Below are positions 7,800 to 35,620 of a stretch of DNA of 47,494 nucleotides, piece after piece. Position 1 is the stretch's first letter, and each line of letters starts with the position of its first letter. The notes beneath the pieces were generated by a model. The model did no database searches, was not told the DNA's origin, and saw only the letters and a program-made list of their open reading frames with translations. The stretch lies in IMG/VR virus record IMGVR_UViG_3300029868_000036, positions 1 through 47,494 of that record; one strand, 5' to 3'. The position numbers and the translations under genes were made by a program. The stretch comes from a virus.

Positions 7800-7800
7800 A

Positions 7801-7833
7801 AATTTAAAACTATCAAATATATACCCCACTTAA
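7801..7833 (+). promoter_or_regulatory. Conserved intergenic motif copy 1 (AATTTAAAACTATCAAATATATACCCCACTTAA), putative promoter/activator site
   Basis: 33 bp identical to 45949-45981. The core ACCCCACTTAA also occurs at 14702 and, inverted, at 35621. A TATAAA box lies 29 nt downstream and the start codon 55 nt downstream. Confidence 0.5.
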
Positions 7834-7887
7834 TCTTTTTTTTATTACTACAATACTCCTATATAAATTATATTTAAAGGACACGAG

Positions 7888-10632: not shown

Positions 10633-10641
10633 GAGTACTAT

Positions 10642-10974
10642 ATGGCTAAAGTATACTTCGCACCTTATAGTGCTATCAAGTATGTCGGGACTAAGGCTAA
10701 GGTACTCAATACCTCCTTAGCTCGACCAAAGCCGAAGCTTGTAAAAGGCGATATTGTCATAGTAGATAAAAAAGTCGCTTTTAACTTAGTACATAAAGGT
10801 TTTGATGAGTTTGTCAGTGTTGATGAGATTTCATTTGTAAAAGCAGATGTTTCCTCTGAGCAAAAAATAAAGGCTCTTGTGGAGAAAACACAAGCACTAG
10901 AAAATGAGATACACTCACTTTTTAGTAAAAATGTAGAACTCACAAGAGTTCTAAATGACTTAGAGGCAAAATAG
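10642..10974 (+). CDS. Hypothetical structural-module protein
   Basis: 110-aa ORF with RBS aggag at 10631-10635 and a C-terminal coiled coil. Confidence 0.45.
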   Translation: MAKVYFAPYSAIKYVGTKAKVLNTSLARPKPKLVKGDIVIVDKKVAFNLVHKGFDEFVSVDEISFVKADVSSEQKIKALVEKTQALENEIHSLFSKNVELTRVLNDLEAK

Positions 10975-11870: not shown

Positions 11871-13742
11871 ATGTTTGAAGATACAGTACTTTTAGTAGAG
11901 TGGCTCAGAGAGTCAGCTCGCCACTTTAAAGATACAAAAGCTTTTAGTAGAAAAGTAAGAGAGTACTATAATGGTGACCAACTCGATGACTTCATAAAAG
12001 GCATACTAGCCAACCGTGAGCAACCAGAGCAGTATGAAAACCAGATAGCAAAACATAACAATGCCATACTCGGGTTTAAAAAAGAGAGACGCATAGATAT
12101 AAAGCTCTTTGGAAGACAGCAAAAAGATAAAGCAGGGGCAAATATGCTCAATGCTCTCATGAAAGCCATAACTCAAGTAAGTGAGTATGAAGAGCAGATA
12201 GACGCACTTGATGATGAGCTTAGCATAGAAGGACTAGCAGTTGCAGAACTCAGTATAAGTGCTAGTGGTGAGTATGATGAATTTGGACGAGAACACAAAG
12301 ACCTTGACATCAACCATGTTCCTGCGGATGAGATATACCTTGACCCATTTTCCCGCGGGAAAAACTACAACAAAGATGCAAGGTATATCACTCGTTGTTT
12401 TTGGATAGACAAAGAAGACCTTTACGGGCTTGGATTTGATGCAAAAGATATAGAGTCTTTAAACTCAAGCAACCATCTCTCAGACATAGTAGATGATGAC
12501 CTTTATGCTGATGCACACATAAGAGATAGAGTGCTTCTCTCTTACACTTGGTACAGAAAGTGGGATAAGCAAGCCAAAAAAGATAAGTTTTACTACTGCT
12601 TCTGGAGTGATAGAACTATACTACTTCAAAATGAAACACCATACGACTTTGATGGCTTCCCTTATGAAGTAGAGTTTTTAGGAAGAGATACTAAGGGAAA
12701 GATAAAGTACTGGGGGCTATACCGTGACATCATGCCTCTACAAGATAACATAAACTACTCAAAACTAAGACTACAAAATATGCTTGCAAACCAAAAAGTA
12801 TATGTAGAAAAAGGTGCTCTCATAGATGAGGACATAGAAAAGTTTGCAGATGAGAACAGCAGAGATGATGCCACTGTTATGGTGGAAAGTGTAAACGGCA
12901 TAAAAGATGTCAAGCAAAATGTTCAGATACAGCAGATACTCAACATCATCATAGATGCACGACAGCAGATAAGTGAGCTGCTTAACTCGAACAAAGAGAT
13001 GCTAGGAACTGCCAACAACCGCATGAGTGGAGTAGGACAAGAGCAGAGAATACAGACAGGACTTGTAGGGCTGAGTCGTTTTATGAACAAGGGCGATAAT
13101 CTTCAAAAGAAGATAATAAAAAAAGCCGTAAAGTTTGTAGAGCAGTACTATGACTCGGCTAGAGTTGTGAGCATAATAGATGAAGACTATATGCAAGACT
13201 TTATGATGATGAATGAACCTGTAAAGAATGAGTTTGGTGGTGTAGAGTTTGAGAATGTGAGTGGTGGGGAGGTAAGACCAGTAGCTAAAAATGCTATATC
13301 TGTAGGTAAATATGACCTTGTCTTTACTGCTAAACCGAAGTCTAACTCTATGAGTGCAGAGAGACTACGACAAAATGTAGAGCTACTCAAAGTACTTCAA
13401 AGCACAGACCCAGCACTTGTCAAGTACCTAATCCCTGACATACTCAGAGATAGTGACTCTCCAAGTGCAAATAAGATACGAGAGATCATAGAGCAAAGAG
13501 ATAAAGATGCACAAGACTCTCCACAAGCACAACAAAATGCACAGCTCGAGCAAGAGAACATAAGACTAGAGATGTTACTCAAACAGTCTCAGGCTACTCT
13601 AAACAACTCAAGAGCAAAGGCTTTGACAGACAAGAATAAGATAGACCTGCAAAAAGCTTTTAGTAACTCGCTTGTCTCAAAGCAAAATGTAAGAGCAAAG
13701 ATGGATAAAAATATGTTAGATGCTAACAGGAGGGCAAGTTAA
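11871..13742 (+). CDS. Putative portal protein
   Basis: The call rests on the 623-aa size, position in the head module immediately before internal-protein-like genes, and an acidic helical C-terminus. No diagnostic motif can be verified without a search. Confidence 0.5.
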   Translation: MFEDTVLLVEWLRESARHFKDTKAFSRKVREYYNGDQLDDFIKGILANREQPEQYENQIAKHNNAILGFKKERRIDIKLFGRQQKDKAGANMLNALMKAITQVSEYEEQIDALDDELSIEGLAVAELSISASGEYDEFGREHKDLDINHVPADEIYLDPFSRGKNYNKDARYITRCFWIDKEDLYGLGFDAKDIESLNSSNHLSDIVDDDLYADAHIRDRVLLSYTWYRKWDKQAKKDKFYYCFWSDRTILLQNETPYDFDGFPYEVEFLGRDTKGKIKYWGLYRDIMPLQDNINYSKLRLQNMLANQKVYVEKGALIDEDIEKFADENSRDDATVMVESVNGIKDVKQNVQIQQILNIIIDARQQISELLNSNKEMLGTANNRMSGVGQEQRIQTGLVGLSRFMNKGDNLQKKIIKKAVKFVEQYYDSARVVSIIDEDYMQDFMMMNEPVKNEFGGVEFENVSGGEVRPVAKNAISVGKYDLVFTAKPKSNSMSAERLRQNVELLKVLQSTDPALVKYLIPDILRDSDSPSANKIREIIEQRDKDAQDSPQAQQNAQLEQENIRLEMLLKQSQATLNNSRAKALTDKNKIDLQKAFSNSLVSKQNVRAKMDKNMLDANRRAS

Positions 13743-14686
13743 TGGGATGGTATGATTCTTTTAAAGGGGATATTTCACGAGTAGATACTAGAGGACTTAC
13801 GAGTAGTAGAGGGAGTGCTTTTAAGAACTTAGGGGATGCTTTTGCAAGCATAGGAAAAAATATGGTAGATGCAAAGGCACAGAAGTCTCGTTCTGATTTA
13901 GTAGATGCTGAGACTAAACAAAGAAATGCTACAGTAGTAAAACAAGAAGCAGAGCAAGCACAAAAAGATGTGAGTGATGCTTTTGGGAAAAGCTACTTAG
14001 GGCAGACAGATAGAAATGCTTATGAGTCTAGTCCATTGTATAGTGCTTTTGCAAGTGAAGACGCGAATGTTAAGCCAAGTGCTACTGACCTACAAGCAGA
14101 AGATGCTTACTTCAAAAAGATAGCAGATGAGAGTGCATATAAAAATGCAAGTCTCTACAATGTAGGTGCAAAAGATGGACTCTCTCTTGATGTATGGATG
14201 CAAAACAACCCTAATGTAAGTGCAACAACTGTAGCAAAAGTAAAAGCAGAGATACTTGCAAAGAATGCAGAACTATCTAAATTAACAACAAAAGAGAAAG
14301 ATATTAAAAATGCTACAAAATTATCTAAGATGCAGGAGAAGTTAAATAAGGCTGCACTTAAAAACTCTAAAGATGATAGTTTTAAATATACTGAGATAAC
14401 CGATGCAAAAATAGCAGCACAAGTAAAAACAGCTATGGGGATGGATGCCCCTAACTTTAATTTTGATGATGCAACTAAAGTTCAGTACCAAAACACTGTA
14501 TCTGGGGCTGCTAAAATATCTAAAAAGTACAAGCTTGAGCCTAGTTTAGCAATACATGTATACCAAAACCCAGACCTTTATGAGTTTACTGCTGATGGTA
14601 ATGTTTTGTTAAAAAAAGCTTCAAATGAAAGTCCTAAGAAAACTACTCAAAAGCAAAGCGGTTCATGGAAAGATTATCAAAATTAA
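13742..14686 (+). CDS. Hypothetical virion-associated protein
   Basis: 314-aa ORF. Its ATG overlaps the portal stop (TAATG). The protein is K/A/D-rich. Confidence 0.45.
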   Translation: MGWYDSFKGDISRVDTRGLTSSRGSAFKNLGDAFASIGKNMVDAKAQKSRSDLVDAETKQRNATVVKQEAEQAQKDVSDAFGKSYLGQTDRNAYESSPLYSAFASEDANVKPSATDLQAEDAYFKKIADESAYKNASLYNVGAKDGLSLDVWMQNNPNVSATTVAKVKAEILAKNAELSKLTTKEKDIKNATKLSKMQEKLNKAALKNSKDDSFKYTEITDAKIAAQVKTAMGMDAPNFNFDDATKVQYQNTVSGAAKISKKYKLEPSLAIHVYQNPDLYEFTADGNVLLKKASNESPKKTTQKQSGSWKDYQN

Positions 14687-14701
14687 CTGGTGCTTTTAAA
14701 G

Positions 14702-14712
14702 ACCCCACTTAA
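14702..14712 (+). promoter_or_regulatory. Conserved motif copy 2 (ACCCCACTTAA core)
   Basis: Same core followed by TCTTTTTTT as in copy 1. TATAAT is at 14743-14748 and the TTG start of the giant ORF lies 51 nt downstream. Confidence 0.45.
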
Positions 14713-14762
14713 TCTTTTTTTATTCGTTAGTATAAGCCTTTATATAATAATAAAGGCATATT

Positions 14763-17700
14763 TTGAAAAAGCTAGATACATTTAACGACAATGAATTTCA
14801 ATCCCTCGACTTAAAAGAAAAACAGACTATAGCTACTAACTATTTTGATACTGAGATAGCTGATAATGAGTTCACTGCCCTTGATACATCTACACAAACA
14901 AGCATCAGAGATAATTTTATAAATGCACAAATTGATTTTGATGTGAGTGATACTGTTGATAAAGTAGTCGACTTTGTAAACCCTCCAAAAAACTACATAC
15001 AAGATGATACTGTAAGTGATCCGTCAATTCACAATCCAACTGCCCCAAATATTGATGGGAGTATACCTACTATAAAGCAAAAACCATTATCAATAGAGAC
15101 TCCAGATACTTCTTTTAATCAAGACAGCACTAGTACTATGGATATAGCTACATTTGAAGACAACATCAAACCACAAGAAGATTATATTAACCCTGAGTCT
15201 GGAGATTTTGAACTAGCTAAGAGAGTTGTAAATAGAACTAATGAGCTAACTGCAAATGCAATACAAGGTACTTACAATATCTTAGGAAACATTAAAAGCC
15301 CTATAGAGTATCTTGGAATATCTACTGATGCTATGGATGCTCAGAGCAAAAAAAGGAAAGAGTGGTTCAAAGATGCTAGTGATAAACTAAATGACTTTGT
15401 TTATGAGCAAAACAAGTTTAAACTCAACAAAAAAGATAAACCAACTCACTCGTGGGAAGAGGTAAAAAAAGGTTTTAATACAGGTGGAGTGTTTGATATT
15501 GATGCTTGGCAAGAGCTTGGAAACTATGTGGGAAGTGAGGGAGTTGCTAGTAGTGTTGATATGGCAGAGATGGTAGCTACCCTACCACTGTACTATGCTT
15601 CAAGACTTCAAGAGAGTGCTGAGAAGAGAGCAAAAAATCAAAATAGAAAAGAGCCTAATGCTACTGACTACCTTATATCTGCACCAACTACAATAGGAAG
15701 TATTTTGTTGGATAGGTTCGGTCTTAAAGCTATGACTAGTGATGTTGTCCAGAGTGTTGGTAAAAAAGCACTTGATGGTAAACTTACAGAAGTTGCCAAA
15801 GAGATAGGCTCAAAGATGAAAGATGGTTTTATTAAAGAGGGTGTTACTGAGGGGGTACAAAATCCTTTAGAGATGTTTGGAGAAGAAGTAAGTACGAAGA
15901 AAGGTCTTAGCAGTGTTGAGCAGTATGTAGATAATTCTTTAGCTGGTGTGGTTGCTGGTGCTGGTATGGGAGGTACTCTTAGTGGTGCTACTGCAACTGG
16001 TAGTATGGCACTCAATGAGTACTCTGCAAAAAAACGAGAGACTCAAAGAGAAGAGTATATTTTAGATACTTACAAGAGAGATGTTCTTGGTAATGGTCTT
16101 GTTGCTACTGTGGATGATAATGGATATATAGAGTTTAAACAAAGCCTTGAGGTAAAAGTAAAAACTATTCAAGATGAGTTTACTAACTTTGTTATAAACA
16201 ATCCTGAAGTAGAAGTACCTGTAGAAGCAGTAGAGAATATAAATATGCAAGAAGTCATAGTCGAAGATGCTAAAAAGCAAGGACTCAATGTTTTAAACGA
16301 AGATGGACTTAATGCTATTGATATAGGTTTTAAAGAGCTTGAAGCAGAGATAGGAAGTACAGAAGAGATAGCTTTAGAACCTAAAGGTGTAGAGGCAGAA
16401 CCGACACAAGTTATTGAGCCTACTGCTACCAAAATAGAAACAGCACCAAAAAATGCTAAAAATCTTTATGAAGATGATAGTCCCGCACTTCAAGCTGATA
16501 ATATTGGCACTTATGAGAGTGGAAAACAAGTTGAGTATACCACTTCAGATGGTAAAAGCAGTATAGTGACAGTTGCACCTAGTGATAATCAATACAATTA
16601 TGATAGAAAAAAGGTAGCAGTAATAAATGCTGATGGTGTAGAGTTTGCAGTAAGTCCAAGTACTCTTAGTATAGTTTCTTCGGCACCATCAATAGAAGAG
16701 TCACAAGCTAATGCGAGAGGGAAGAAGAAACCTACTCCTAGTGCAATAGATGCAAAGCTCGCACTCAATGAAAAGCTTTATGGATATAGTGAAGATGCTT
16801 TAGCACAAGCAAATAAAAAACTTTTTGATGCAGACAAGAGCGAAGAGGCTCGACTCAAAAAACTTAGTACCAGTGACATAGCAGAAGAAGAGAGAGCTTA
16901 CTACGAAAACAAGAACACACCTGCTGAGACTCAAAGAGCTTATGACTTTTTAAGTACTAATACTAAAAAAGTTCAGAGCAAACAGGGTTCACTTACTGGA
17001 CTAGAACCAACAGGACAAAATGCTCTTTTTGATACACAAGCAAGTGAGGAGTATATTACTCCATCATGGGCAAAAGAGATAGTGAGTGATACTACAAAAT
17101 ATAGTGATATAATTACAGCACTTACAGATGCAAATAATGGTACATATACGGAGTTGTCAGATAGAGCGATGAATGCTTTACATAGTGCAGGAGACCCACA
17201 TCTTGTAAAAGAGATAATTAGGTTTGATGAACTTGATGGGAGATGGGACTTAAATGAGATAGAGATACAAGAGCAAAAAGCTCTTTATGATTTACTAGAG
17301 AATAACTTAAAAGGAGTAGAAAATGGCACAATCCCAAGAAGAACAAGCGACACTACAGAGACTCAAGGAGCGAGAAGTGAGACGGGAGTTTCAGAAAGTA
17401 AAACCAAAGATAATGGAGATGTACAAGAGACTACAAGAGGAGGGATACTCCAAGGAGGAATCCAAGAAGATGGTAGTACAGAAGTACCCTCAAGCAAGCA
17501 AGATGAAATAACTACAGATGTATCTATAAATGATACAAACTACAAGATATATGATGATGGAAGTGTTCTTGAAATAAAAAAAGATGGCAAACTGACAGAT
17601 TTTAAACTTGATAAACAAAAAGAAGATAGTATTAGACAGGGTGCATCTTGGACTGGTTCTACTCCTGAGTATGAGTATAGTAATCTTTCTAAAGTTTATC

Positions 17701-20700
17701 TCGTATCTAAACTATCTAAGGCTAGTTACTATGGTAGCGAGCAGAAGTACAAAAACTTTATAGACAAACTAGAGAGTGGAGACTTACCAAAAAATGAAGC
17801 TACTACAATAGCTTTAAACGAAATGGCTACCGCACTAGATGTTAAAGCAAAACAACTCAATCAAACAAGGGAGGTATACAAAAATGAAAGTGAACTTAGA
17901 AAATATGAAGGGCTGGATAAAGATACAATCAAAAAGTATGAAGATGGAACTCAAAGAAGAAAAGATAGCACAGCTAGCAGAGGAAGCGATGCAGACTTAC
18001 AAGAGACAGCTAAGTCTGACAAAGGACAAACAAGAGTCACAAGAGACAGCGATGCTAGTGACAATAGACAAACTCCAAAAGATATAATATTTGATAGTGC
18101 TAAGGTCTACAGCACTAAAGGTGTTACTGATGAGATACCAAGCAGGTTAATCTCTAAGCAGATTCAAAAAGATGTAGCAAGGTATGTAAAACAACTAGCT
18201 GATAGACTAGGATATGAGTTTGCTCTGAATGCTAAGGGTAAAAAACTTTCATATAATGGAGTAAGTGATAACATTGCAGAAGCAGGAGGAAATACTACTT
18301 TTAAATTATTTAAACCAAAGAGTGACATAGGGATATATGTCTCTTTAAACTATGACTTAGATTACAAGAGTGACTCCAATAATGATGCCTATACTCTTAG
18401 TGATGGATTTGTTGGTGGGCATCTTTTTAGGACCACTTCAAAGAGTGGTGTTGATGGTAATAATCAGTTCATACCTACACATAAACTTGACAGTAAAGAG
18501 TTTATAGATGATATAATATATGAAGTTGAAAATAGAATTAAAAGAGAGGAAACAAAAAATGCAAGCGAAAATAAAAGCAGTACAACAACTGACAGAACAA
18601 GTGATACAGCTGGAGTACCAACTGCAAAACAAAAAACACCTGAATCCAAAAGCGATAAAGGAAGTGACAAGTCAGTACCAAACAGCGATAAACGACCTGA
18701 CAGACTTAGTGATGATAGAAGCAATAGAAATGAAGTACCCACAAAAGATGAAAGAGTGGACAGACTTCCGACCACTAGCGAAGATAAACTCAATGAGCAA
18801 CAAACAACTAATGCAGACACAGTACTACCAAAACCTAATGAACGACTCACTCCTACAAAGAACTACAGCCTAGTAGGTAAAGAATCAGTAGAACTAACTA
18901 AAGGGCAGAGAAAAAAGTTTAATGCTTCTGCCCTTGACATCATCAAAAAACCTTTAGAAGAGATAACTGAGGCAGATAGAGAGATACTTAGACACTATAC
19001 TGGAGAGGGTGGGCTTGATGCAGTTAATGAAAACTCTATCAATCAACACTATACAAACTATGAAACAGTAGATGCTATGTACTCCGCTTTAAAAAGTACT
19101 GGTATCACTATGGACAAGGTACTAGAGCCAGCAGTTGGAAGTGGTAACTTTGTAGGCTTTAATCCTGATGCCTCATGGGATGTTGTGGATATAGACACTA
19201 CAAATATAGAAGTGACTAAAAGGTTATACCCTCAAATAAAAAACTTTTATGATGAAACTTATGAAACATTCGCTGGTAAAAACTACGACCTAATCATCTC
19301 TAATGTTCCTTTTGCAAGTGAGCAGTTGCTTATGAGAGAACATGCCATGACTATTAAGCCAGCGTTTAAAGCAATTCACAACTTTTACTTTGCTCATTCA
19401 ATAGACAAGGTAAAAGATAATGGTGTTGTCGCGTTTATGACAAGTACTGGTACTATGGATGGGACTACTACGGCTAGAAGTTTGAGAAAGTATCTTATGG
19501 ATAGAGGCGACTTAATAGGGGCTTTTAGACTACCTGAGAAGAGTCAAGCAAAAAATTCTCATACAGACACTATGATAGATATAATCTTCATACAAAAAAG
19601 ACCTAGTGGTGTAGAGTCAAGACAAAATGACATAAACAATCTCTTTATCAATGTTGGCTCTAGAGAGGGATTTGCTATGAATGAGTACTTCATAGCTAAC
19701 CCTGAGTTTCTTTTAGGGGATGAAGTTCTTATAGATAAAGATAAAACTAAGATGGGTAAAGAGGGTTGGATAGTTCGAGGCGAGAGTAATCTAGAAAAAA
19801 TCAAACTCAATTATGAGCCATATAAAAAACTTAAAAAGTCTAAAGAAGAAAAGAGCAATTTTGTAGACTTAGATGAAGCTAGAGTCTATGCTAAAAATAA
19901 TGCCCTTGTTATGAAAGTTGTTCAAGACACAAAGGTGTTCTCTGAAATTACAAGTGATAGTTTTACTCTCTTTGACAAAGTAGTGACTTTTAGGGACTCT
20001 GAGCAGATAGTAATGTTTGGAACTAAACTCAAAGGAAACAATACAAATAAGGCTTTGCACTTAAACAGAATCATGACCTTAACAGAAGATGCGGTAAATC
20101 AAGAAAGTAAAACACTCTTAGAAAATGCACTTAGTGAGATAGAGTCCTATAAAGAGATATATGAGAAGTCTCCACATAATGACCTTGGACTTAAAAAGTT
20201 TATGAAAGCTAATCGTGCAGATGTAAAACTCAAAGAGTTTATGTCTTACTTTGACAAAGATTTTAACCCTGCTGCTATTTATGGAGAAAAGACACGTTTT
20301 AAAAATAGTGGAGATATAAAGATAGACTCATCTAGCCCTCTTATGGATAGAGCACTCTTTTACTCAAACTTTGATAGCATCATAGATACTTCTAAATCGT
20401 ATGAGTTTTTAAACTCAAATGATATTAAGCAGCTAAAGAGCGAAAGTCTTTTTGTACAAAGTGGTGAGAATGAAATTCAACTTGGATTTATGTACTATGC
20501 TGGTAATGTTTATAAAAAGCTAGACAACTTAGAAAATCTTAATGCTAGTGGTAATATTTCAAGTGCTGAGTATAAGGCTCAATATACAAACCTTAAAGGT
20601 ATTATCCCCAAAGCGATTCCCTACAAGAGTATAAAAGTTAAGGGCGGAGAGTCTTGGATACCGAGTGTTGTAAAAGATAAACTTCTTGCAGTGCAAAAGG

Positions 20701-23700
20701 GAGAACTTAAAGTTAATGATAGTGTTTTTAATGGGAATGCTTCTCATGCTGAACTTTATAACAGATACTTAAATAAAACAGCCCTTGCACCAAAGCTCAA
20801 AGATGAGAGTGATTCTGAAAATATCCAAAGAACTATGGATGCGGAAGAGATTTTAAATGTTACTCTTGTTCCTAAAGTCATGCAATACATAGAAAGTGTT
20901 GGACTTTCTGAAATACTTACAGATGAGTACAATAGATTTTCAAACTTCTATGTAAGACCTGAAATGACTGGTGTACTCTTAAGAGATTTACCTAAGTCTT
21001 TTCGTGGTAAACCTTTTAAAATGCAAGGGCATCAAGCCGAGGGTGCTGAAAAAATAGTCTTTAATAAAAAAGGTGTTTTAGCTTTTGCCCCCGGCGGAGG
21101 AAAAACAATCACAGCAGTTGTAGCAGTTAAAAACCTTTTGGATCAGAGTGTAATGAAAAAACCTCTTTTTGTTGTTCCTGTAAATACCATAGCACAATGG
21201 GAAGAAACTGTTAAAGAATTGTATCCTGATGCTAGTGTTTACGAGTTTCCAAAAGTGAAGAGTGGAAAGAATAAAGGTAATGCTAAAGAGTGGACACAAC
21301 TCTCTCGTGAAGAGAAAGAGCAGATGGCATTTGACCTTGCTAATAATAGATATGACTTTACTATCATTGGCGATACAATGTTTCAAAAGTTTGGTCTGCC
21401 TAGTGATGTGCTCAGTGAGTATGTTGATGACCTTGTAGCTCAGATGATAAAAGAAGAGAGTGCTACAGATGATGCAAGTAAAAAAGATAAAAAAGAGATA
21501 GTATCTGCGGAGCAAAAAAGAAAAGCTCTTAAAGTAGGTCTGAGACAAGCTTATGGTGGAGAGGTTGAGTTTGACTTTGCAAAACTTGGCTTTGATGGAC
21601 TTATAGCAGATGAAGTGCAGTACTATAAAAACATAGGTATGCAAGGTAAAGATGTTAAAGGTGGACTTGGGGCAACTATAGCTATCAAGTACTCCGATAA
21701 AGCTGGAAAGAGTCTGACTACTAAAGATATTAAAGATGGTGCAGAGCCTTACTCTGCTACTCTTGGTTCTATGAGAAGTTATGACTTTAGATTTAAAAGT
21801 AAATATGTATCTCAAAACAACAATGGTAACAATGTAATACTCCTCACAGGGACACCAACACCAAACAAACCTCTTGAACTATATACACTCCTGCAACACC
21901 TAGATGAGAATATCCTTTTAGAGTACGGCATAGAAGCTTCTAGTGATTTTGTAGATACTTTTTATGACATTGAAAATTATGAGACTACAGATAGTATTGG
22001 TAAGATAGTAAAAAGAGAAGGTCTCGGTAGTATGAAAAACTTGGAGTGGTTAGGTAAGATACTTGATAGATATGTAGACTATAAAGGTTTTGAGTCTATG
22101 CCTGACTTACCACGACCTAAGCAGATAGAAGTAGAACACTATATGAAACTCTCAAAAGCTGGGGAGGTAATCTTTGGGGATGTGCAAGCTCGACTTATTC
22201 AAGCTATAGAAGATGGTAAACTTTTAAAATCTGGTGCAATAACTGCTGATAGTATAGAGATAGCACTTGTTCCTATGGGTGCAGGTCGAAGTGCATCTAT
22301 AGACTTGAGACTCTACGATATAGGCACTAAAGGAAAGTCTGAACTTACACATGATGAACTCTCAGAGCTTATTGTTAATGATGAAGCTACGATAGAAAAC
22401 AACAAGATATTAAAAACAGTAGACCTTGTTAAAAATCAATATAAAGAGAACCCTGATAGCGGACAGATAATATTTTTAGATAGATTAAAAGTAAAAAATC
22501 CTGATGGTACTACAACTTCTACACACCAAGAGATACGAGAGCAAGTTTTAGCTACTGGTCTTTTTGATGAAACAGAGGTTGTGTTTGTTAATGGTGGTGA
22601 GTTTGTAAACCATAACACTGGTAAAGTCTCAAAGGGTTCTATTAAACCTGACATGTTAAACAAAATCATGGATATGTATAATGAAGGAAAGATAAAAGTC
22701 ATTATAGGCAATACATCTAAGCTTGGTGTTGGAGTAGACCTAAACAGAAAAACTACTGACATATATCAGTTAGATATTCCTTTTCGCCCTGATGAAATAG
22801 AGCAGAGGAATAACCGTGGTGTAAGACAAGGTAATGAAAATGCTTCTGTACGAACACATAAGTTCTTCCAACTTGGAACCTTTGATAAAAGAAGTTATGA
22901 CATTGTTATTGCTAAGAGAGGGTTTAACGACATATATGGTTTTAGTGATACATCTGATATTGTATATAATGATGGTGTTTCTAAGATAGACAACAAGTCT
23001 ATGACTGACCCATATCAAGCTATAATAGATTTAGAGAGTGATCCATTTGTGAGAGAGAAACTTAGAAAACAGAGAGTTATAGATAATGCTGTAGTGGACG
23101 CTAACAATCTTAAAAATATAGTGACAAAACTTGAAGCTGATATTAGAATTAAGCAGGGTTCTATTGTAAACTATGAAAACGGAATAAAAGGTGTAGAGTC
23201 TAACTTGCAAGAGAAGAACTACCCTGAGTATAAAGCTGTTAAAGATGTAGCAGAGAAAAAAGCTAAACTAGAGAAGTATATCTCAGATAATCAAGCTCGA
23301 AAAGTAAAATATGAAAACACTATTCAAGAGATAAGAGATGATATAAAAACTATTGAGAGTAAGCTTGATGGGAGAAGAGAGATGCAAGCTACACAGCTTG
23401 CAGATACTAAGTTTATCACTGATGAGTATACAAAAGATGGTGTGAATGTAGATATAGCTCTCATAAAAGCTGCATACACAGAGCAACAGATACTTGAGAG
23501 TGAAGAGAATGTAAGCGATAGTGGCTCGGATAGTTATATGCAAAACAAGATGAACCATTCTATTAATAACAATATGACTCAAAAAGAGAAAAAAAATCAA
23601 GAAGAAGCAGATGCTTATGCTCGTGCTAATGGTTTTGATGAAGCTGGAGCGAACTATATACCTACTTACTCTTCTTCAAATATGCCGACTCGTTCTAAAG

Positions 23701-26700
23701 ATGGAACTATAGACATAGGTGTAAAAACTGTACTTCTTCCAAGCATAGATGCTCCTATAAATGCTGATAGCTTAAGAGTATATCTTAAAGACATTATAGG
23801 CAATAGACTCTACGAAGCAAAAATAAAAGCTAAGAGTGCTTTAGGTGTTTACAAAAGACAAGATAGTGCTATACGAGTAAAAAACTATAGTGACATGGAA
23901 GTAATGGCTCATGAGATGGCACACTACTTAGACTTCTTTTACAAGAACAAGACTAAAAAATCGAATGATAGTTTCTTTAGAGTTGAGATACTTAGAAACA
24001 AAGAAGAAGTAAAAGCACTCAGCTATACTACAAACCCAAAGAATGTAATAAGAGAGGGTTTTGCAGAGTTTGTTAGACTATGGCTAACTAACTACAATTC
24101 TCTTGAACTTGTGGCTCCAAATATGGTAGCAGACTTTGAGGTAAAACTCTCATCAGATAAAGTGCTGCTTAAAAAAATGACTTTACTGCAAGAGGGTCTA
24201 CACCAGTACTTCCACCAAGGTTCTCACGCAACCCTTAGAAGTAAGCAAGGTGGAGAATTAAATAAAACTGCAAAGAAGTTACAAAGAAGTCAAGCAGAGA
24301 TAGCGAAGAACTTTAGACAAGCTACTATAGACAAGATACATAGCATTAAACGCATAGAAGCAGAAGTTTTAGGTGACAATGCATCTGATGCGATTGATAG
24401 TCCTTATAAGCTCTTACAGTTAGTCAATGGTGCTAGTTCAATTATGTATAGTGCTATGAATATAGGAATCCCTACTGTACAAGATAATGGAGATATATCT
24501 TATAGTGGAAAAGCTTTGAATGATATATTTGCACCTGTTACTTCTAAAGGAGAAGAGAGAGTACGACTCTTTAGCGATTATCTTGTAGCAAAGAGAGCTA
24601 ATGAGCTTATGGCACAAGGTAGAGAGAACCTTATAAGTAAAGATGAGATAAAAATAGGGCTTGACCTTGGCGAAATGTATCCTGAGTTTGAATCTGTTTC
24701 TGATGAGTATCAAGAGTTTAATGATAGGATGCTTGATTTTTATGTAAATATGAATCTCATTACGACTTCTCAAAGAGAGAACTTCAAAGAGTTTAATAAA
24801 AACTATGTTCCATTTGCTAGAGTTACTGAGAGTGTGCAGTTTGGAGAAGTAGCACCAGCAACTATAGGACAAAGACTCACTGGTGGTACTCGTTCTTTAG
24901 GCGATATAATGGAAAATATTATTAATGGCATAGAAAGTAATATTAAAGAGGCTCTAATTTCCCGAGGGAAATCTGTATTTTATGAGATGCTTCAAGAGAG
25001 TGGTATGGGTGGTGTTTATGCAACTAAGGTGAGTGTAGAAGATAAGCTTGTAAAAAGTGATATTCAACAGCAAGCTAAAAAGATAGCTCTTATAATGAGT
25101 GAACTTGGCATAACTGTAAGTAAAGATGGAATGATACTTAGTGGTGATATAACAAGTGACAATATCATAGATGTTAAAGAGATAGAAGCTAATCTTGTAC
25201 AAAACCCTGAGGCTTTAGAGTTTTGGACTCATGGGCATAAACCTACTTCTAAAACTGCATATATAGATAGTGCAATCATAGATGATAAGGTTGTTTACTT
25301 TGAGGTTAATGATAAGGCTCTTGTTGATGCGATGACTTCTTTTAGGAGTGCTAATTACAATGAGCTAGTTCAAGGACTCATGACTATAAAAAATGTTATG
25401 ACTTGGAACATTACTAATAATCCTCTTTTTTATCTAACAAACTTTGTGCGAGATACTATCTCTGCGAGTGTTCTTAGTAAAAACAACTTTAAGCCTGTAC
25501 TTAGTTCAATAGCTGGTGCTTATCACTTTGTAACGAAGTCAAAAACTTTTAAAGAGTTTATGGCTAGTGGTTCTGGATATGGAACAAGAAGAACAACTCT
25601 TGGAAGTGATATACAAGCCATGTCAATGCTAAAGGTTAATCGTGGGCTTGATTTAGTTAGTAAACTTATAAGTGCTATGGAGTACGGTGCTGATATATTT
25701 GAGTATGGAACTCGTGTTGGAGATTTTTCTTTAGCACAAAGGAGCGGTAAGAGTAATCTGCAATCTTCTTATGAAGCTCGTGAGGTAAGTACTGACTTTG
25801 CCATAAAAGGTGGTAACGATACATTTAGTGGGTTTATGGCTACGGTTCCTTTTATGAAAGCGGGTATCAATGGTATAGATAAAACTGCAAGAAGAATTTT
25901 CTCTTTAAATGGAGAGATGCAGTTTTCTAATGCAATCAAGTTTAAAAATCAACTTGGAGAGCTTCAAACACATAAGATAAAGATTTATGCTACTGGTGGG
26001 ATGATAGCTGGGCTTACTCTTGCTTTATGGTTTCAAAATAGAGATGATGAGAGATATAAAAAACTTACACGAGACTCTAAACTTATGTACTGGCATTTCT
26101 TTATTGGAGATAATCATATAAAAGTACCAAGACCTTATGATATAGGTTTTGCATTTTCTACTATTCCTGAGATTATAGTAGATGGTATTTATACTAAGCA
26201 TGGAGAGCAAGCGGTAAAAGACTTTCTTTGGGGATCTAAAAATATGTTTAGTGTTGGAGATATTAGTGGTTTGTTCCAGCCGATACTTGAAGATATGACA
26301 AACACTAACTGGACTGGTTCTCCTATAGTTCCTAGAAATATGCAAAATTTAGATGACTTAAGTGACCAATACTTTAGCAGCACTCCAAAGATGTATAGAG
26401 AGTTTGGCAAGGCTACAGGAACGAGTCCTATAAAACTGCAACACTATGTAGATGGATACCTTGGACTTACTGCAAAAATGATAGAAGAAGTTACAGAGAA
26501 TTTACTTTGGAATAAAAAAGAGTGGGGAGCAAGACCATTTGAGAGAAATGCTTTAGAGTTTTTAACATATAGATTTAAAGCTAGAGAGGTAGAACCTAGA
26601 AGCAAGTATAGTGAAAAGTACTATGAGCTAATGAAAAAGGCAAGTGGGGTTAAGGCTAGTTATGAGAAGAAAAGAAAAGAAGCTTTTATCGATAAAGGTA

Positions 26701-26948
26701 AAGACATAAGAGCATACATGAGCGATAAAGAAAAACAAGCTTATTTAAGTGTTGATAAAATGCTTAAGAAGTTTAACAAGACACTTACTCAGATAAAAGT
26801 TAGTATAGAAGTTGTTTCTTATGATAAGAGTTTAAGTAAGACTCAAAAAGAGAAACTAATCAATGATGCTTATACAAATAAAACAACTATGTTTAAAGAG
26901 ATAACTGAGAGTTTAGAAACTGAACTTAAAAAGCTAAAAGGGGAATAG
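14763..26948 (+). CDS. Giant polyvalent protein (4061 aa): N6-adenine DNA methyltransferase + SF2/SNF2-like helicase + HExxH metallopeptidase-like region; probable packaged/ejected anti-restriction protein
   Basis: Uninterrupted 12,186-nt ORF with a TTG start after aaagg. Methyltransferase, helicase and zincin motifs are listed as separate features. The gene follows the portal-region genes. Confidence 0.85.
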   Translation: MKKLDTFNDNEFQSLDLKEKQTIATNYFDTEIADNEFTALDTSTQTSIRDNFINAQIDFDVSDTVDKVVDFVNPPKNYIQDDTVSDPSIHNPTAPNIDGSIPTIKQKPLSIETPDTSFNQDSTSTMDIATFEDNIKPQEDYINPESGDFELAKRVVNRTNELTANAIQGTYNILGNIKSPIEYLGISTDAMDAQSKKRKEWFKDASDKLNDFVYEQNKFKLNKKDKPTHSWEEVKKGFNTGGVFDIDAWQELGNYVGSEGVASSVDMAEMVATLPLYYASRLQESAEKRAKNQNRKEPNATDYLISAPTTIGSILLDRFGLKAMTSDVVQSVGKKALDGKLTEVAKEIGSKMKDGFIKEGVTEGVQNPLEMFGEEVSTKKGLSSVEQYVDNSLAGVVAGAGMGGTLSGATATGSMALNEYSAKKRETQREEYILDTYKRDVLGNGLVATVDDNGYIEFKQSLEVKVKTIQDEFTNFVINNPEVEVPVEAVENINMQEVIVEDAKKQGLNVLNEDGLNAIDIGFKELEAEIGSTEEIALEPKGVEAEPTQVIEPTATKIETAPKNAKNLYEDDSPALQADNIGTYESGKQVEYTTSDGKSSIVTVAPSDNQYNYDRKKVAVINADGVEFAVSPSTLSIVSSAPSIEESQANARGKKKPTPSAIDAKLALNEKLYGYSEDALAQANKKLFDADKSEEARLKKLSTSDIAEEERAYYENKNTPAETQRAYDFLSTNTKKVQSKQGSLTGLEPTGQNALFDTQASEEYITPSWAKEIVSDTTKYSDIITALTDANNGTYTELSDRAMNALHSAGDPHLVKEIIRFDELDGRWDLNEIEIQEQKALYDLLENNLKGVENGTIPRRTSDTTETQGARSETGVSESKTKDNGDVQETTRGGILQGGIQEDGSTEVPSSKQDEITTDVSINDTNYKIYDDGSVLEIKKDGKLTDFKLDKQKEDSIRQGASWTGSTPEYEYSNLSKVYLVSKLSKASYYGSEQKYKNFIDKLESGDLPKNEATTIALNEMATALDVKAKQLNQTREVYKNESELRKYEGLDKDTIKKYEDGTQRRKDSTASRGSDADLQETAKSDKGQTRVTRDSDASDNRQTPKDIIFDSAKVYSTKGVTDEIPSRLISKQIQKDVARYVKQLADRLGYEFALNAKGKKLSYNGVSDNIAEAGGNTTFKLFKPKSDIGIYVSLNYDLDYKSDSNNDAYTLSDGFVGGHLFRTTSKSGVDGNNQFIPTHKLDSKEFIDDIIYEVENRIKREETKNASENKSSTTTDRTSDTAGVPTAKQKTPESKSDKGSDKSVPNSDKRPDRLSDDRSNRNEVPTKDERVDRLPTTSEDKLNEQQTTNADTVLPKPNERLTPTKNYSLVGKESVELTKGQRKKFNASALDIIKKPLEEITEADREILRHYTGEGGLDAVNENSINQHYTNYETVDAMYSALKSTGITMDKVLEPAVGSGNFVGFNPDASWDVVDIDTTNIEVTKRLYPQIKNFYDETYETFAGKNYDLIISNVPFASEQLLMREHAMTIKPAFKAIHNFYFAHSIDKVKDNGVVAFMTSTGTMDGTTTARSLRKYLMDRGDLIGAFRLPEKSQAKNSHTDTMIDIIFIQKRPSGVESRQNDINNLFINVGSREGFAMNEYFIANPEFLLGDEVLIDKDKTKMGKEGWIVRGESNLEKIKLNYEPYKKLKKSKEEKSNFVDLDEARVYAKNNALVMKVVQDTKVFSEITSDSFTLFDKVVTFRDSEQIVMFGTKLKGNNTNKALHLNRIMTLTEDAVNQESKTLLENALSEIESYKEIYEKSPHNDLGLKKFMKANRADVKLKEFMSYFDKDFNPAAIYGEKTRFKNSGDIKIDSSSPLMDRALFYSNFDSIIDTSKSYEFLNSNDIKQLKSESLFVQSGENEIQLGFMYYAGNVYKKLDNLENLNASGNISSAEYKAQYTNLKGIIPKAIPYKSIKVKGGESWIPSVVKDKLLAVQKGELKVNDSVFNGNASHAELYNRYLNKTALAPKLKDESDSENIQRTMDAEEILNVTLVPKVMQYIESVGLSEILTDEYNRFSNFYVRPEMTGVLLRDLPKSFRGKPFKMQGHQAEGAEKIVFNKKGVLAFAPGGGKTITAVVAVKNLLDQSVMKKPLFVVPVNTIAQWEETVKELYPDASVYEFPKVKSGKNKGNAKEWTQLSREEKEQMAFDLANNRYDFTIIGDTMFQKFGLPSDVLSEYVDDLVAQMIKEESATDDASKKDKKEIVSAEQKRKALKVGLRQAYGGEVEFDFAKLGFDGLIADEVQYYKNIGMQGKDVKGGLGATIAIKYSDKAGKSLTTKDIKDGAEPYSATLGSMRSYDFRFKSKYVSQNNNGNNVILLTGTPTPNKPLELYTLLQHLDENILLEYGIEASSDFVDTFYDIENYETTDSIGKIVKREGLGSMKNLEWLGKILDRYVDYKGFESMPDLPRPKQIEVEHYMKLSKAGEVIFGDVQARLIQAIEDGKLLKSGAITADSIEIALVPMGAGRSASIDLRLYDIGTKGKSELTHDELSELIVNDEATIENNKILKTVDLVKNQYKENPDSGQIIFLDRLKVKNPDGTTTSTHQEIREQVLATGLFDETEVVFVNGGEFVNHNTGKVSKGSIKPDMLNKIMDMYNEGKIKVIIGNTSKLGVGVDLNRKTTDIYQLDIPFRPDEIEQRNNRGVRQGNENASVRTHKFFQLGTFDKRSYDIVIAKRGFNDIYGFSDTSDIVYNDGVSKIDNKSMTDPYQAIIDLESDPFVREKLRKQRVIDNAVVDANNLKNIVTKLEADIRIKQGSIVNYENGIKGVESNLQEKNYPEYKAVKDVAEKKAKLEKYISDNQARKVKYENTIQEIRDDIKTIESKLDGRREMQATQLADTKFITDEYTKDGVNVDIALIKAAYTEQQILESEENVSDSGSDSYMQNKMNHSINNNMTQKEKKNQEEADAYARANGFDEAGANYIPTYSSSNMPTRSKDGTIDIGVKTVLLPSIDAPINADSLRVYLKDIIGNRLYEAKIKAKSALGVYKRQDSAIRVKNYSDMEVMAHEMAHYLDFFYKNKTKKSNDSFFRVEILRNKEEVKALSYTTNPKNVIREGFAEFVRLWLTNYNSLELVAPNMVADFEVKLSSDKVLLKKMTLLQEGLHQYFHQGSHATLRSKQGGELNKTAKKLQRSQAEIAKNFRQATIDKIHSIKRIEAEVLGDNASDAIDSPYKLLQLVNGASSIMYSAMNIGIPTVQDNGDISYSGKALNDIFAPVTSKGEERVRLFSDYLVAKRANELMAQGRENLISKDEIKIGLDLGEMYPEFESVSDEYQEFNDRMLDFYVNMNLITTSQRENFKEFNKNYVPFARVTESVQFGEVAPATIGQRLTGGTRSLGDIMENIINGIESNIKEALISRGKSVFYEMLQESGMGGVYATKVSVEDKLVKSDIQQQAKKIALIMSELGITVSKDGMILSGDITSDNIIDVKEIEANLVQNPEALEFWTHGHKPTSKTAYIDSAIIDDKVVYFEVNDKALVDAMTSFRSANYNELVQGLMTIKNVMTWNITNNPLFYLTNFVRDTISASVLSKNNFKPVLSSIAGAYHFVTKSKTFKEFMASGSGYGTRRTTLGSDIQAMSMLKVNRGLDLVSKLISAMEYGADIFEYGTRVGDFSLAQRSGKSNLQSSYEAREVSTDFAIKGGNDTFSGFMATVPFMKAGINGIDKTARRIFSLNGEMQFSNAIKFKNQLGELQTHKIKIYATGGMIAGLTLALWFQNRDDERYKKLTRDSKLMYWHFFIGDNHIKVPRPYDIGFAFSTIPEIIVDGIYTKHGEQAVKDFLWGSKNMFSVGDISGLFQPILEDMTNTNWTGSPIVPRNMQNLDDLSDQYFSSTPKMYREFGKATGTSPIKLQHYVDGYLGLTAKMIEEVTENLLWNKKEWGARPFERNALEFLTYRFKAREVEPRSKYSEKYYELMKKASGVKASYEKKRKEAFIDKGKDIRAYMSDKEKQAYLSVDKMLKKFNKTLTQIKVSIEVVSYDKSLSKTQKEKLINDAYTNKTTMFKEITESLETELKKLKGE
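18960..19700 (+). other. N6-adenine methyltransferase domain of the giant protein (approximate bounds)
   Basis: SAM-binding motif I is EPAVGSGNF (19125-19151). Catalytic motif IV is NVPF (19302-19313), about 59 aa downstream. Confidence 0.75.
21000..22900 (+). other. SF2 / SNF2-like helicase domain of the giant protein (approximate bounds)
   Basis: Motifs read: Walker A APGGGKT (21087-21107), DEVQ box (21609-21620), LLTGTPTPNKPLELY, motif VI QRNNRGVRQG (22803-22832). Confidence 0.8.
23850..24100 (+). other. Zincin-like HExxH region of the giant protein (approximate bounds)
   Basis: HEMAH is at 23910-23924, with a downstream REGFAEF segment. This is a single short motif, so the call is tentative. 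Confidence 0.45.
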
Positions 26949-27623
26949 ATGGCACATGATATAGAAATACGGTTTAAATGTAGAGCACTCTTTGAGGTTC
27001 TTGATATGAGTCTTACTACCATATCAAAACAAGAGTCGGTAGGGATATCTACTCTGAGTGACTGGAAAAATGATGATAGAGAAGAGTTTGGCGGTATTTG
27101 GGTTCAAGGATGCAAGGCTGGAACTATAGAACAGACTACTATGAAGCTCAGAGAAGAGTTAAAAGCTACTTCTGTTTATGATGAGATGAAAAACAGAGTC
27201 AATAGATACCAAGGTATCACTAAAGATGGTGCTATAAAAACGGATGGAATGCTGAGTGTCGGTAGTGAAAATGCTGAGATACAAGCAAGAGTAGAAGCCG
27301 ATGTCACACTCTTAGCATCTGTAGGTGCTGACTACTTTGACTCACAACTCTTTAAAAACTCTATGCTTAGTTCTATCGTTTTAAATAACCAAGTGAAAAA
27401 AGATATATCTAAAGTCAAGCAAGCAGATATAAAAGCAAGTAGTGAGATACATAAGATAGCTAAAGAAGCTAGGTTTGGTAAGAGTCCTGAGACTGTCATA
27501 TTTAATGCCAATGGTAATTACTCTCCTGAAGAGTTAAACGACCTTACTATAGAACAGCTTGAGGAATTAATGAAGAGAGAGAGTGAACCTATTTTGGATG
27601 TTGTATTAGATGAAAAGTGTTAA
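26949..27623 (+). CDS. HTH-domain protein (possible small terminase subunit or regulator)
   Basis: 224 aa. The N-terminus (LDMSLTTISKQESVGISTLSDWKN) looks like a helix-turn-helix. The ATG abuts the giant ORF stop (TAGATG). Confidence 0.35.
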   Translation: MAHDIEIRFKCRALFEVLDMSLTTISKQESVGISTLSDWKNDDREEFGGIWVQGCKAGTIEQTTMKLREELKATSVYDEMKNRVNRYQGITKDGAIKTDGMLSVGSENAEIQARVEADVTLLASVGADYFDSQLFKNSMLSSIVLNNQVKKDISKVKQADIKASSEIHKIAKEARFGKSPETVIFNANGNYSPEELNDLTIEQLEELMKRESEPILDVVLDEKC

Positions 27624-27926: not shown

Positions 27927-29012
27927 ATGGCAATTGATAGAAGAGATTATTCGATTAAACTAGAATCTGGATTATGGTCCAATAAAAAGCACACTATATT
28001 TTTATATAGATTTACTTATGAGAAAAAAACATATAGCGGTCTGATAGATTTAACAGATAAAATCAGTTGGAACAAAAAAGATAAAATATCTACTGCTCGT
28101 GCTGAACTTATAAAAATCAAGAATGATAAAAAAGATTCAGTACTTAGTGACAAAGTTACTCTTGATGAGTTTATGTCTAGCTTTTTTAAATTAAGACCTG
28201 ATACAAACAATACTAAAACTAGAAAAAGTCATTATGATAGATATGTAAGTCCGATTTGTGGGATGAAGAGAGTTGTGGACATACGACAACTACATATAAA
28301 ACAGAGCATAAAGAGTCAAGAAGATTTAGGTCTTGCTCCTCGAACTGTTAAGCAGACTCTTGAAGCACTCTCCCCTGCTTTTAAAAGTGCTATTGCAAAT
28401 AGGCTTATCTCTTACAACCCTCTTGATGGCATAGTTATTAAACTACCTAAAACAAAGAAAATAGTTAGTGAGGCTGGTGTAGAACTTACAAAAATATATA
28501 AAGCTATATATGAAGAGTTTGGAGATGATCCTTTTTATCTTTCTCTTTTTCTGTTTGCCCTTCAAGGTAGAAGAAGAGGAGAGATACTTACTCTTAAGTG
28601 GGAAGATGTCAGTATAGATAACTCTTACTACATTTTGAGAAACACTAAGAATAATGAAGAGCAGAAGATATTTTTACCTAATGTTATCAAAGACAATTTA
28701 AAAGAGATACCTCGCGTTAGTGAGTGGGTTTTTACTTCTCGTAGAACTGGTTCGCATCTCGTGGATATTAGAAAGATTACTAATAAGCTTAAGGCTAGGC
28801 TTCAAGATGATAAATTCGGCATACACTACTTAAGAAATGTAATAGTAAGTGCTATGGCTGAACAAGGCTTAGAGAGTATGCACCTTAGTGGTGCTTTAGG
28901 GCATAACGACCCTAACACTATCAAGAAGTATCTTACTATGAACTACTTGAAGTCTAGTGAGTTGGCTAGTGGGGTCATTGATGGGATAGTTTTAAACTCT
29001 CCTTTAAAATGA
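27927..29012 (+). CDS. int: Tyrosine integrase
   Basis: 361 aa. Catalytic residues are recognisable: GRRRGEILTLKWEDV (Arg), HYLRN (His-x-x-Arg), GHNDPNTIKKYL (His...Tyr). The gene is adjacent to attP. Confidence 0.85.
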   Translation: MAIDRRDYSIKLESGLWSNKKHTIFLYRFTYEKKTYSGLIDLTDKISWNKKDKISTARAELIKIKNDKKDSVLSDKVTLDEFMSSFFKLRPDTNNTKTRKSHYDRYVSPICGMKRVVDIRQLHIKQSIKSQEDLGLAPRTVKQTLEALSPAFKSAIANRLISYNPLDGIVIKLPKTKKIVSEAGVELTKIYKAIYEEFGDDPFYLSLFLFALQGRRRGEILTLKWEDVSIDNSYYILRNTKNNEEQKIFLPNVIKDNLKEIPRVSEWVFTSRRTGSHLVDIRKITNKLKARLQDDKFGIHYLRNVIVSAMAEQGLESMHLSGALGHNDPNTIKKYLTMNYLKSSELASGVIDGIVLNSPLK

Positions 29013-35570: not shown

Positions 35571-35620
35571 TTCCTAACCCCTTAGTTTATGTTGTGTTCA
35601 TTATATAAATATGTTTTTAG

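Follow-up and report, generated by a model that had tools for sequence, protein, structure and literature searches.

The phage genome recovered as IMG/VR record IMGVR_UViG_3300029868_000036 devotes about a quarter of its length to one gene, which raises the question of what a protein of 4061 residues does for its virus. The stretch of DNA analyzed here, referred to as the window, comprises positions 1 to 47,494 of that record. Within it, the listing of open reading frames (ORFs) and their translation gave a single uninterrupted ORF of 12,186 nt at 14763..26948, with 4061 codons, a TTG start codon and no internal stop, as a preliminary description of the locus had stated. The ORF and all parts of it described below lie on the plus strand. 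Giant polyvalent proteins are a main route by which phages bring ready-made enzymes into the cell ahead of their DNA; to our knowledge, almost none of them has been studied beyond DarB of phage P1 and the virion RNA polymerase (vRNAP) of phage N4. The product of this ORF is a cysteine-free, phage-type large polyvalent protein, and we consider it likely that it is packaged in the virion and ejected, with end modules on either side of a cargo. Its domain content, the syntenic block in which its gene lies and the finding of LPD38-bearing relatives in purified virions together give good support to an injected counter-defense protein as the best reading. The preliminary description, which had proposed such a protein, was right about its kind, a DarB-like polyvalent protein that is very probably injected; the terminal thirds are conserved end modules, probably for delivery, rather than unexplored enzymes.

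The middle of the protein carries two enzymes. An N6-adenine DNA methyltransferase occupies residues 1380-1680 (18900..19802), with motif I EPAVGSGNF at residue 1455 and motif IV NVPF at residue 1514 (SNVPF at residue 1513). It is followed by a superfamily 2 helicase or translocase of the SNF2-like type at residues 2084-2720 (21012..22922), which bears GGGKT (APGGGKT at residue 2109), IADEVQ (DEVQ at residue 2283), LTGTP (LLTGTPTPNKP at residue 2360) and QRNNRGVRQG (residue 2681). Together with HEMAH at residue 3050, these are the seven motifs of the preliminary description, and all were located. Profile searches, which that description had named as a check on both enzymes, scored above the Pfam cut-offs for N6_Mtase (PF02384; 29.8 bits against 20.4 when the segment was scanned alone), SNF2-rel_dom (43.4 against 24.9) and ResIII (30.5 against 22.5); Helicase_C fell slightly below its cut-off (22.1 against 23.5). 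Families of giant phage proteins in PHROG were also matched, 'DarB-like antirestriction' among them at 1.8e-89. The region between the two enzymes (residues 1681-2083; 19803..21011) has no curated family, is spanned by PHROG giant-protein profiles and shows 68% conservation with the relatives P0074 and the protein of L008. A phmmer search of the whole protein against solved structures returned nothing significant. A reading of the locus as part of a defense system (DISARM DrmD, Dnd or BREX) was set aside, as the matches were weak, local to helicase motifs and far under the family cut-offs.

The methylase-helicase pair is collinear with that of P1 DarB (YP_006479.1, 2255 aa), in which an N6-adenine methylase likewise precedes a superfamily 2 helicase. 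BLASTP against DarB gave three collinear segments with E-values of 1e-14 to 1e-16. Residues 1383-1615 of the methylase match DarB 47-277 (E 3e-14), and the helicase aligns in two parts, 2051-2448 with 783-1192 and 2632-2749 with 1460-1567 (E about 1e-15 to 1e-16). In both proteins motif I stands before an NVPF motif IV, motif I being EPAVGSGNF here versus EPSAGTGVF in DarB and motif IV reading GNVPF in DarB, and the SNF2-like helicase is C-terminal. Helicase motifs II, III and VI are IADEVQ, LTGTP and QRNNRGVRQG here versus IADEGH, LTATP and QRNGRGARVG in DarB. The P1 darB gene adjoins the portal gene, and the giant gene likewise lies near a portal gene. DarB is found in the phage head (PMC9024508) and protects against type I restriction (PMC5512222). 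It differs from the present protein in having no N-terminal module, HExxH motif or LPD38, in carrying 9 cysteines among its 2255 residues and in belonging to a myovirus.

The class of large polyvalent proteins was defined by Iyer et al. in 2017, whose account includes the methylase-helicase pair with DarB as its archetype, the zincin peptidase and LPD38 (PMC5512222). The present ORF joins N6_Mtase, SNF2/ResIII/Helicase_C, HExxH and LPD38 in one frame; LPD38 is one of the LPD domains confined to the polyvalent proteins of phages (PMC5512222); and the gene adjoins late or virion genes, with synteny in four relatives. Profiles and BLASTP therefore agree with the earlier assignment of a polyvalent protein that combines a DarB-like methyltransferase and SNF2-like helicase with an HExxH motif.

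The closest cultured counterpart is gp01 of Vibrio phage VvAW1 (YP_007518343.1, 3640 aa, 'DarB-like antirestriction'). Its domains follow in the identical order of methylase, SNF2-like helicase, HEMAH zincin and LPD38, so the combination is not new and does not by itself point to new activities as had been suggested. The C-terminal modules of the two proteins are 40% identical over about 1170 residues, gp01 is equally free of cysteine (0 of 3640 residues), and its gene makes up 28% of a 38.7-kb genome, where it follows virion and 'DNA transfer' genes. The methylase-helicase pair of gp01 differs, being of another subtype (NPPF as motif IV, QREGRIIRQG as motif VI) and only 23-31% identical, and the host is a Vibrio rather than a member of the Campylobacterales. 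The N-terminal module went undetected in gp01 by BLAST. The other ORFs of the window found no match in the parts of the VvAW1 and Vibrio phage 1.183.O genomes that were fetched, on which ground a shared phage backbone with either was rejected; the giant gene appears to travel between unrelated phage backbones.

Two Burkholderia phage proteins of about 4500 residues annotated as 'DarB-like', JC1 gp69 and Bcep22 gp75, resemble the present protein by their descriptions, with a methylase, a helicase and a C-terminal LPD38. JC1 gp69 has 4515 residues, accounts for 22% of its genome and stands at the end of a podovirus virion module, and 51 of its unique peptides were recovered by mass spectrometry from CsCl-purified virions (PMC9144972). 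Both proteins differ in an N-terminal lytic transglycosylase-like domain and an LPD3 domain, and their phages differ in GC-rich genomes and Betaproteobacteria hosts.

In some relatives the middle of the protein is missing or replaced. One of them, P0003 (1855 aa), has the N-terminal module at 41% identity and the C-terminal module at 26% over 1158 residues, without methylase or helicase. Another, P0073 (2724 aa), is encoded in the same syntenic setting and matches residues 1-561, 722-898 and 1066-1443, then jumps from residue ~1444 straight to residue ~2793. It retains the lead-in to the methylase (RHYTGEGG...NQHYTNY), and everything from motif I through the end of the helicase is gone. The distal junction of the absent cassette (residue ~2793) falls within the spacer that separates the helicase from the C-terminal module (residues 2721-2949; 22923..23609). 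In P0072 (3832 aa) the end modules are 59-63% identical to those of the window protein, and its methylase-helicase pair shares 48% identity with that of VvAW1 and only 23-30% with that of the window, a pattern in which P0072 appears clearly as a mosaic. Precomputed Pfam annotation of other proteins with the C-terminal module places upstream of it PF00990, PF00959, PF04002, PF13489, PF18760, PF18809 and PF18810, which we take to be GGDEF, phage lysozyme, RadC, methyltransferase, ART-PolyVal and PBECR families. Because the pair is absent from P0003 and P0073, is replaced by another in P0072 and gives way to varied families upstream of other C-terminal modules, it can be seen from these alignments to be exchangeable cargo between conserved ends.

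For the ends themselves, database homologues were sought with the N-terminal 1380 residues and the C-terminal 1112 residues separately. The first 1380 residues have no Pfam family even at E<=1. An initial search with this region yielded three relatives only, an effect of the polar linker, which overwhelmed the word filter, and an exhaustive run with a profile built from four sequences of the N-terminal module found 676 representative clusters, 439 of them at E<=1e-10. The match lies consistently close to the N-terminus, in proteins of up to 4475 residues. In the window the module spans residues ~130-430 (15150..16052) and is an all-alpha bundle of long helices with a Gly/Ala-rich end, LAGVVAGAGMGGTLSGATATG. 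An AlphaFold2 model from a 30-sequence alignment gave this long-helix bundle at pLDDT 86 and pTM 0.72, and Foldseek against the Protein Data Bank (PDB) found no analogue for it (best E 0.5). Likeness to the helical bundles of transporters and pore-forming proteins was dismissed as noise (E>0.5).

Between this module and the methylase lies a spacer, in the wider sense residues ~430-1380. A small island at residues ~730-830 (16950..17252), with the pattern FDT...WAK..VSDTT.Y.DI, has a narrow distribution; it occurs in 8 of 221 collected relatives, each time between the N-terminal module and the cargo, and its rarity led us to reject it as a general landmark of cargo insertion. The polar-rich part proper covers residues 846-1380 (17298..18902), and from residue 800 the content of K/E/D/S/T/N/Q is 47-61% per 100 residues. 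No tandem repeats were found in the spacer. Identity to relatives is about 50% in residues 722-898 and 1066-1443 (50% against P0073 for residues 1066-1443), conservation within the polar-rich part beginning at residue ~1066, and from residue 1075 onward identity with the L008 protein reaches 68%. The preliminary description had seen a low-complexity linker of about 500 residues here; the polar composition stands, and with repeats absent and conserved islands inside, the aligned sequences indicate that the spacer is more than a featureless linker.

At the other end, residues 2950-4061 (23610..26945) form one conserved, mainly helical unit of 1112 residues, with 68 database homologues at E<=1e-10. 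Most of these are proteins of 1600-1950 residues on contigs of 30-43 kb, and they cover the full module. The final 950 or so residues had been described as bare of recognizable motifs, which they are not, as they belong to this module and hold Pfam LPD38 (PF18857) at residues 3762-3923 (26046..26531; E 2.6e-33; score 116 bits, cut-off 27). Immediately before LPD38, a Kyte-Doolittle scan marks a hydrophobic helix, IKIYATGGMIAGLTLALWF, at residues 3739-3757 (25977..26033), which may have a membrane role. The AlphaFold2 model of the module (pLDDT 84.9, pTM 0.79) runs from a strand-rich start through the HExxH helix and a Glu-bearing helix into a large, mostly helical body.

The first part of this order is a zincin-like subdomain at residues 2960-3184 (23640..24314), with HEMAH at residues 3050-3054 (nt 23910-23924) and EGFAE at residue 3098. 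In a 47-sequence alignment the H, E and H of HExxH are invariant, as are the two glutamates (E..E) of EGFAE 45 residues downstream, and the site residues are likewise invariant in 19 sequences. Pfam gave the subdomain only sub-threshold scores, most of them for zincin families, which also rank first (SprT-like, M91, M9 and ATLF; E 0.0015-0.1), and residues 2950-3760 as a whole match no Pfam family even at E<=1. Searches of solved structures with profiles of the C-terminal module and of the zincin by hmmsearch returned nothing significant, and Foldseek of the module against the PDB (copy to 2026-04-08) gave no match, neither of the two AlphaFold2 models having one at E<=0.001. Against the predicted viral structures of BFVD the module gave 66 matches, with TM-scores up to 0.82; those with names are mostly 'large polyvalent protein associated domain', others being RelA/SpoT, LT_GEWL and methylase.

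The C-terminal module was detected at E<1e-5 in 31 of 144 representatives of the N-terminal module, and nearly complete in 24; many of the remaining representatives are fragments. Among those 24, the N-terminal module has its median start at residue 128, the C-terminal module stops short of the C-terminus by a median of 4.5 residues, and the two are 171-2488 residues apart. An obligate pairing of the modules is weakened by the count of 31. The terminal thirds, earlier singled out as strong candidates for new activities, are thus conserved modules that in relatives enclose quite different middles, and, the zincin site aside, the positions that are invariant in them do not look catalytic. A role in packaging or delivery fits their occurrence in many giant phage proteins with different middles. 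This is an argument from distribution and not from fold, since neither module has a solved structural analogue.

Two further ejected or virion proteins offer parallels. N4 vRNAP (gp50, 3500 aa; PDB 9PNR) has a parallel layout, with an N-terminal domain, a low-complexity linker, a cargo, an HExxH subdomain C1 and a helical C2, the cargo differing in being an RNA polymerase. Its C2 is a helical subdomain of about 110 kDa with no structural relative (PMC13434306), and the protein is ejected into the host, its C-terminal region being needed for encapsidation (PMC13434306; PMC5512222). Hidden Markov models of the N- and C-terminal modules found nothing significant in N4 gp50, and hhalign of the C-terminal module profile with that of the N4 C-terminal domain reached a probability of 2.4%, with the alignment confined to the HExxH strand and helix; homology to N4 vRNAP is thus unsupported in both kinds of comparison. 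The Stx phage protein phi24B gp47 (2811 aa) combines LPD5, LPD1, LPD38 and a MuF-C metallopeptidase, sharing LPD38 with the window protein. It was found in the virion proteome, is invisible in cryo-electron microscopy and has been proposed as an ejection protein (bioRxiv 10.64898/2026.04.10.717836). It differs in its other LPD domains and in that a methylase or helicase is not reported for it; PTXU04, a relative of phi24B, matches the C-terminal module of the window at about 25% identity.

A property that runs through the whole family is the avoidance of cysteine. The window protein has none among its 4061 residues, as opposed to 62 of 9051 (0.69%) in the other 37 ORFs of the window. The three Campylobacterales homologues have none either, 46 homologues of the C-terminal module have a single cysteine in 75,982 residues, and 144 representatives of the N-terminal module have 57 in 261,455 (0.02%). 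N4 vRNAP, which is expelled through a channel of about 35 Å (PMC13434306), is also free of cysteine (0 of 3500 residues). Such avoidance would fit the passage of a loosely folded chain across the tail and the oxidizing periplasm. Elsewhere in the window, the cysteine-free ORFs of the structural module, at 5130-8640, 10228-10974 and 13742-14686, encode 132, 293, 383, 250, 134, 110 and 314 residues, and the replication and regulatory ORFs contain 1-8 cysteines each. Searches of the ORFs at 5766-8640 against PHROG and Pfam gave no family match; some of the cysteine-free structural ORFs may encode further ejected or periplasm-exposed proteins.

From these comparisons we propose the following course of events. 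The gene would be expressed late, together with the head genes; its level would probably be low, with TTG as the start codon and a terminator-like hairpin ahead of it. The protein would enter the capsid by means of its conserved end modules and, as a loosely folded chain, leave through portal and tail at infection, as the virion proteomics of LPD38 relatives and the absence of cysteine suggest. The helical N-terminal module and the C-terminal module may serve delivery or membrane anchoring, and the invariant HExxH...E zincin may trim the chain and so free the cargo, in line with the hypothesis of Iyer et al. that zincins process polyvalent proteins (PMC5512222). By analogy with DarB, the methyltransferase coupled to the SNF2-like translocase would track the entering phage DNA, methylating or shielding it, and the expected result is protection in cis from restriction, chiefly of type I.

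Several points weigh against an injected counter-defense protein. Packaging, ejection, methylation and anti-restriction would all be carried over by homology, and identity to DarB is only 22-38% over the three segments. The route by which DarB is packaged, which involves an N-terminal signal of 30 residues together with DarA, Hdf, DdrB and Ulx and delivers about 40 copies per virion (PMC9024508), is not evident here. Since DarB uses its first 30 residues and the methylase here begins at residue 1380, the route must differ. No Dar partners appeared among the neighboring ORFs in general PHROG and Pfam scans, no search having been aimed at them. The zincin subdomain stays below every Pfam threshold, the end modules are not an obligate pair, and Foldseek against the PDB yields no solved analogue for either of them. 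Several other structural ORFs of the same phage are also cysteine-free, which weakens cysteine avoidance as a signal specific to ejection.

The strongest competing explanation, to which we give a minor share of the probability, is that the protein is primarily a structural ejection protein, in which the end modules build or anchor a trans-envelope conduit, the translocase mainly pulls the genome in and methylation is secondary. The papers on phi24B and N4 propose that gp47 and the N-terminal domain of gp50, respectively, serve as conduit or anchor, and they propose an entry step driven by an enzyme (bioRxiv 10.64898/2026.04.10.717836; PMC13434306). The far wider conservation of the end modules than of the cargo would suit such a role, as would the Gly/Ala-rich or hydrophobic helices in both of them and the lysozyme or lytic transglycosylase cargo of relatives, which is typical of ejection proteins. 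However, a helicase motor is not generally required for DNA entry, because P0073 and P0003 do without one, P0073 even in the same synteny. The protein moreover contains no segment of transmembrane grade (the maximum Kyte-Doolittle mean over 19 residues is 1.4), and no fold match to the ejection proteins of T7, P22 or N4 was found in the PDB copy searched.

A second alternative, which we regard as improbable, holds that the protein is not packaged but acts late in the cytoplasm, either methylating progeny DNA ahead of its packaging or remodeling the DNA of the host, its position by the head genes being incidental. Orphan methylases are common in phages, PADLOC reports an 'orphan methyltransferase' match (6.6e-08), and for this phage presence in the virion is predicted from relatives. 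Against this, LPD38 relatives have been found in virions, cysteine is nearly absent family-wide, and about 2600 residues of conserved non-enzymatic modules would be left without explanation.

An injected counter-defense protein remains our preferred reading, and the locus refines rather than changes the current picture of polyvalent proteins. The locus adds a host group, as a clean full-length example from temperate phages of the Campylobacterales (with relatives in Sulfurimonas and Arcobacter), natural relatives in which the cargo is lacking or swapped and which thereby reveal the modularity, and a widespread N-terminal domain without a curated family. The near-total absence of cysteine, as in N4 vRNAP, could help flag ejected proteins in metagenomes. 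More speculatively, and somewhat doubtful in our own estimate, the N-terminal module and the C-terminal module of about 1100 residues with zincin and LPD38 might constitute a general, cysteine-free vehicle into which nearly any cargo could be set at defined junctions, to be delivered to the cell through the tail of a podovirus. In function, and perhaps very distantly in structure, this vehicle would correspond to the N- and C-terminal domains of N4 vRNAP. If so, the cargo-less P0073 and the cargo-swapped P0072 would show at which junctions foreign enzymes could be inserted.

That the single 12-kb ORF is an artefact of mis-assembly, or of neighboring genes fused through sequencing errors, is highly improbable even though the window is a metagenome scaffold and the gene is split (2815 + 343 aa) in the relative L010, because three independent assemblies contain uninterrupted and mostly collinear homologues (3950, 3921 and 4118 aa) and cultured phages have versions of 3640 and 4515 aa. 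The three assembled homologues are 54-70% identical to the giant protein over the aligned segments. An identical protein is on record in ENA, from scaffold MEYE16-2_SAMN03458688_METAG-scaffold_404, for which the ENA record gives a length of 46,752 nt. Megablast of the giant gene against 50,697 phage records returned no match.

The split gene of L010 (214-9689; from a metagenome-assembled genome (MAG) of Arcobacter sp.) consists of two ORFs of 2815 and 343 codons that overlap by 4 nt, at a point equivalent to residue ~3717 of the window protein. In the N-terminal two thirds of its product, only the first 69 residues are related to the window protein. The split might stem from a frameshift in sequencing, mark a pseudogene or represent a genuine two-gene version.

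The start of the giant gene was compared among relatives as well. P0001, P0073, P0074 and the ORF of L008 can be aligned to the giant protein from residue 1, and the TTG start is supported because these four homologues do so. All relatives of which the DNA was read, L005, L006, L008 and L009, have a TTG start with the same hairpin upstream. In the window this terminator-like hairpin, GCCTTTAT-loop-ATAAAGGC, lies at 14736..14757 on the plus strand, and the TTG falls inside its T-rich tail. A spacer of 76 nt ahead of the giant gene (14687-14765 region) holds a CCACTTAA...T-run motif in addition to the hairpin. A terminator scan found 1 site versus 0.2 expected, and stem and TTG are conserved in the four relatives, the loop alone varying; the z-score of the fold is only -1.66. 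The hairpin may be a putative attenuator that keeps the copy number low.

In agreement with the earlier placement of the gene after portal-region genes, the window order is portal, 314-aa ORF, giant gene, 224-aa ORF and integrase. The portal protein is of the P22_portal family (11871..13742), the 314-aa ORF directly upstream of the giant gene is hydrophilic and cysteine-free (13742..14686), and the 224-aa ORF (26949..27623) begins on the base after the giant stop codon, all three on the plus strand. The portal gene is part of the syntenic block, whose core (an ORF of about 310-330 aa, the giant gene and an ORF of about 225 aa) recurs in L005, L006, L008 and L009; in L005 a portal gene was identified upstream of it. 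The 224-aa ORF has 3 cysteines; its likeness to DUF1804 and to a PHROG 'DNA binding protein', below threshold in both cases, is confined to the first 50 residues. An additional ORF of 392-394 aa on the opposite strand stands between the ~325-aa ORF and the giant gene in L005 (3822-5006) and L006 (2708-3886); it is not present in the window and has no Pfam match.

The closest genomic relatives, with C-terminal modules 70% identical, come from MAGs of Sulfurimonas, Arcobacter and an unclassified Campylobacterales bacterium, and the G+C content is 29-40%; on these grounds the phage very probably infects one of the Campylobacterales. The relative in the unclassified bacterium is part of a 422-kb contig, from which we presume it to be an integrated prophage. 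Other genes of the window encode TerL, a major capsid protein, a lysozyme, DnaG, DnaB, ParA/ParB, a CI-like repressor and two tyrosine recombinases. The phage is temperate, and it may integrate like its relative on the 422-kb contig or persist as a plasmid prophage. The tyrosine recombinases, the ParA/ParB pair and the CI/LexA-like repressor lie at 27927-29012, 34109-36299 and 40172-40846.

Both ends of the window carry an exact repeat of 109 nt (1-109 and 47386-47494), which implies that the window is a complete genome, circular or terminally redundant. Since the repeat is counted once, the unique genome measures 47,385 bp, of which the giant ORF takes up 25.7%, the quarter given in the preliminary description. 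A 52-nt unit is present twice at the start of the window (1-52 and 67-118; 66 nt apart, 96% identity). Shortly beyond it, a diversity-generating retroelement occupies 360-3591. Its template repeat of 119 nt (2334-2452) lies upstream of the reverse transcriptase gene (2542-3591; PF00078, PHROG 'Reverse transcriptase' 2.6e-98), and its variable repeat (1753-1871) is at the 3' end of a 506-aa ORF (360-1880). Of the 19 positions that distinguish the two repeats, 17 have adenine in the template, and the target ORF probably encodes the receptor-binding protein.

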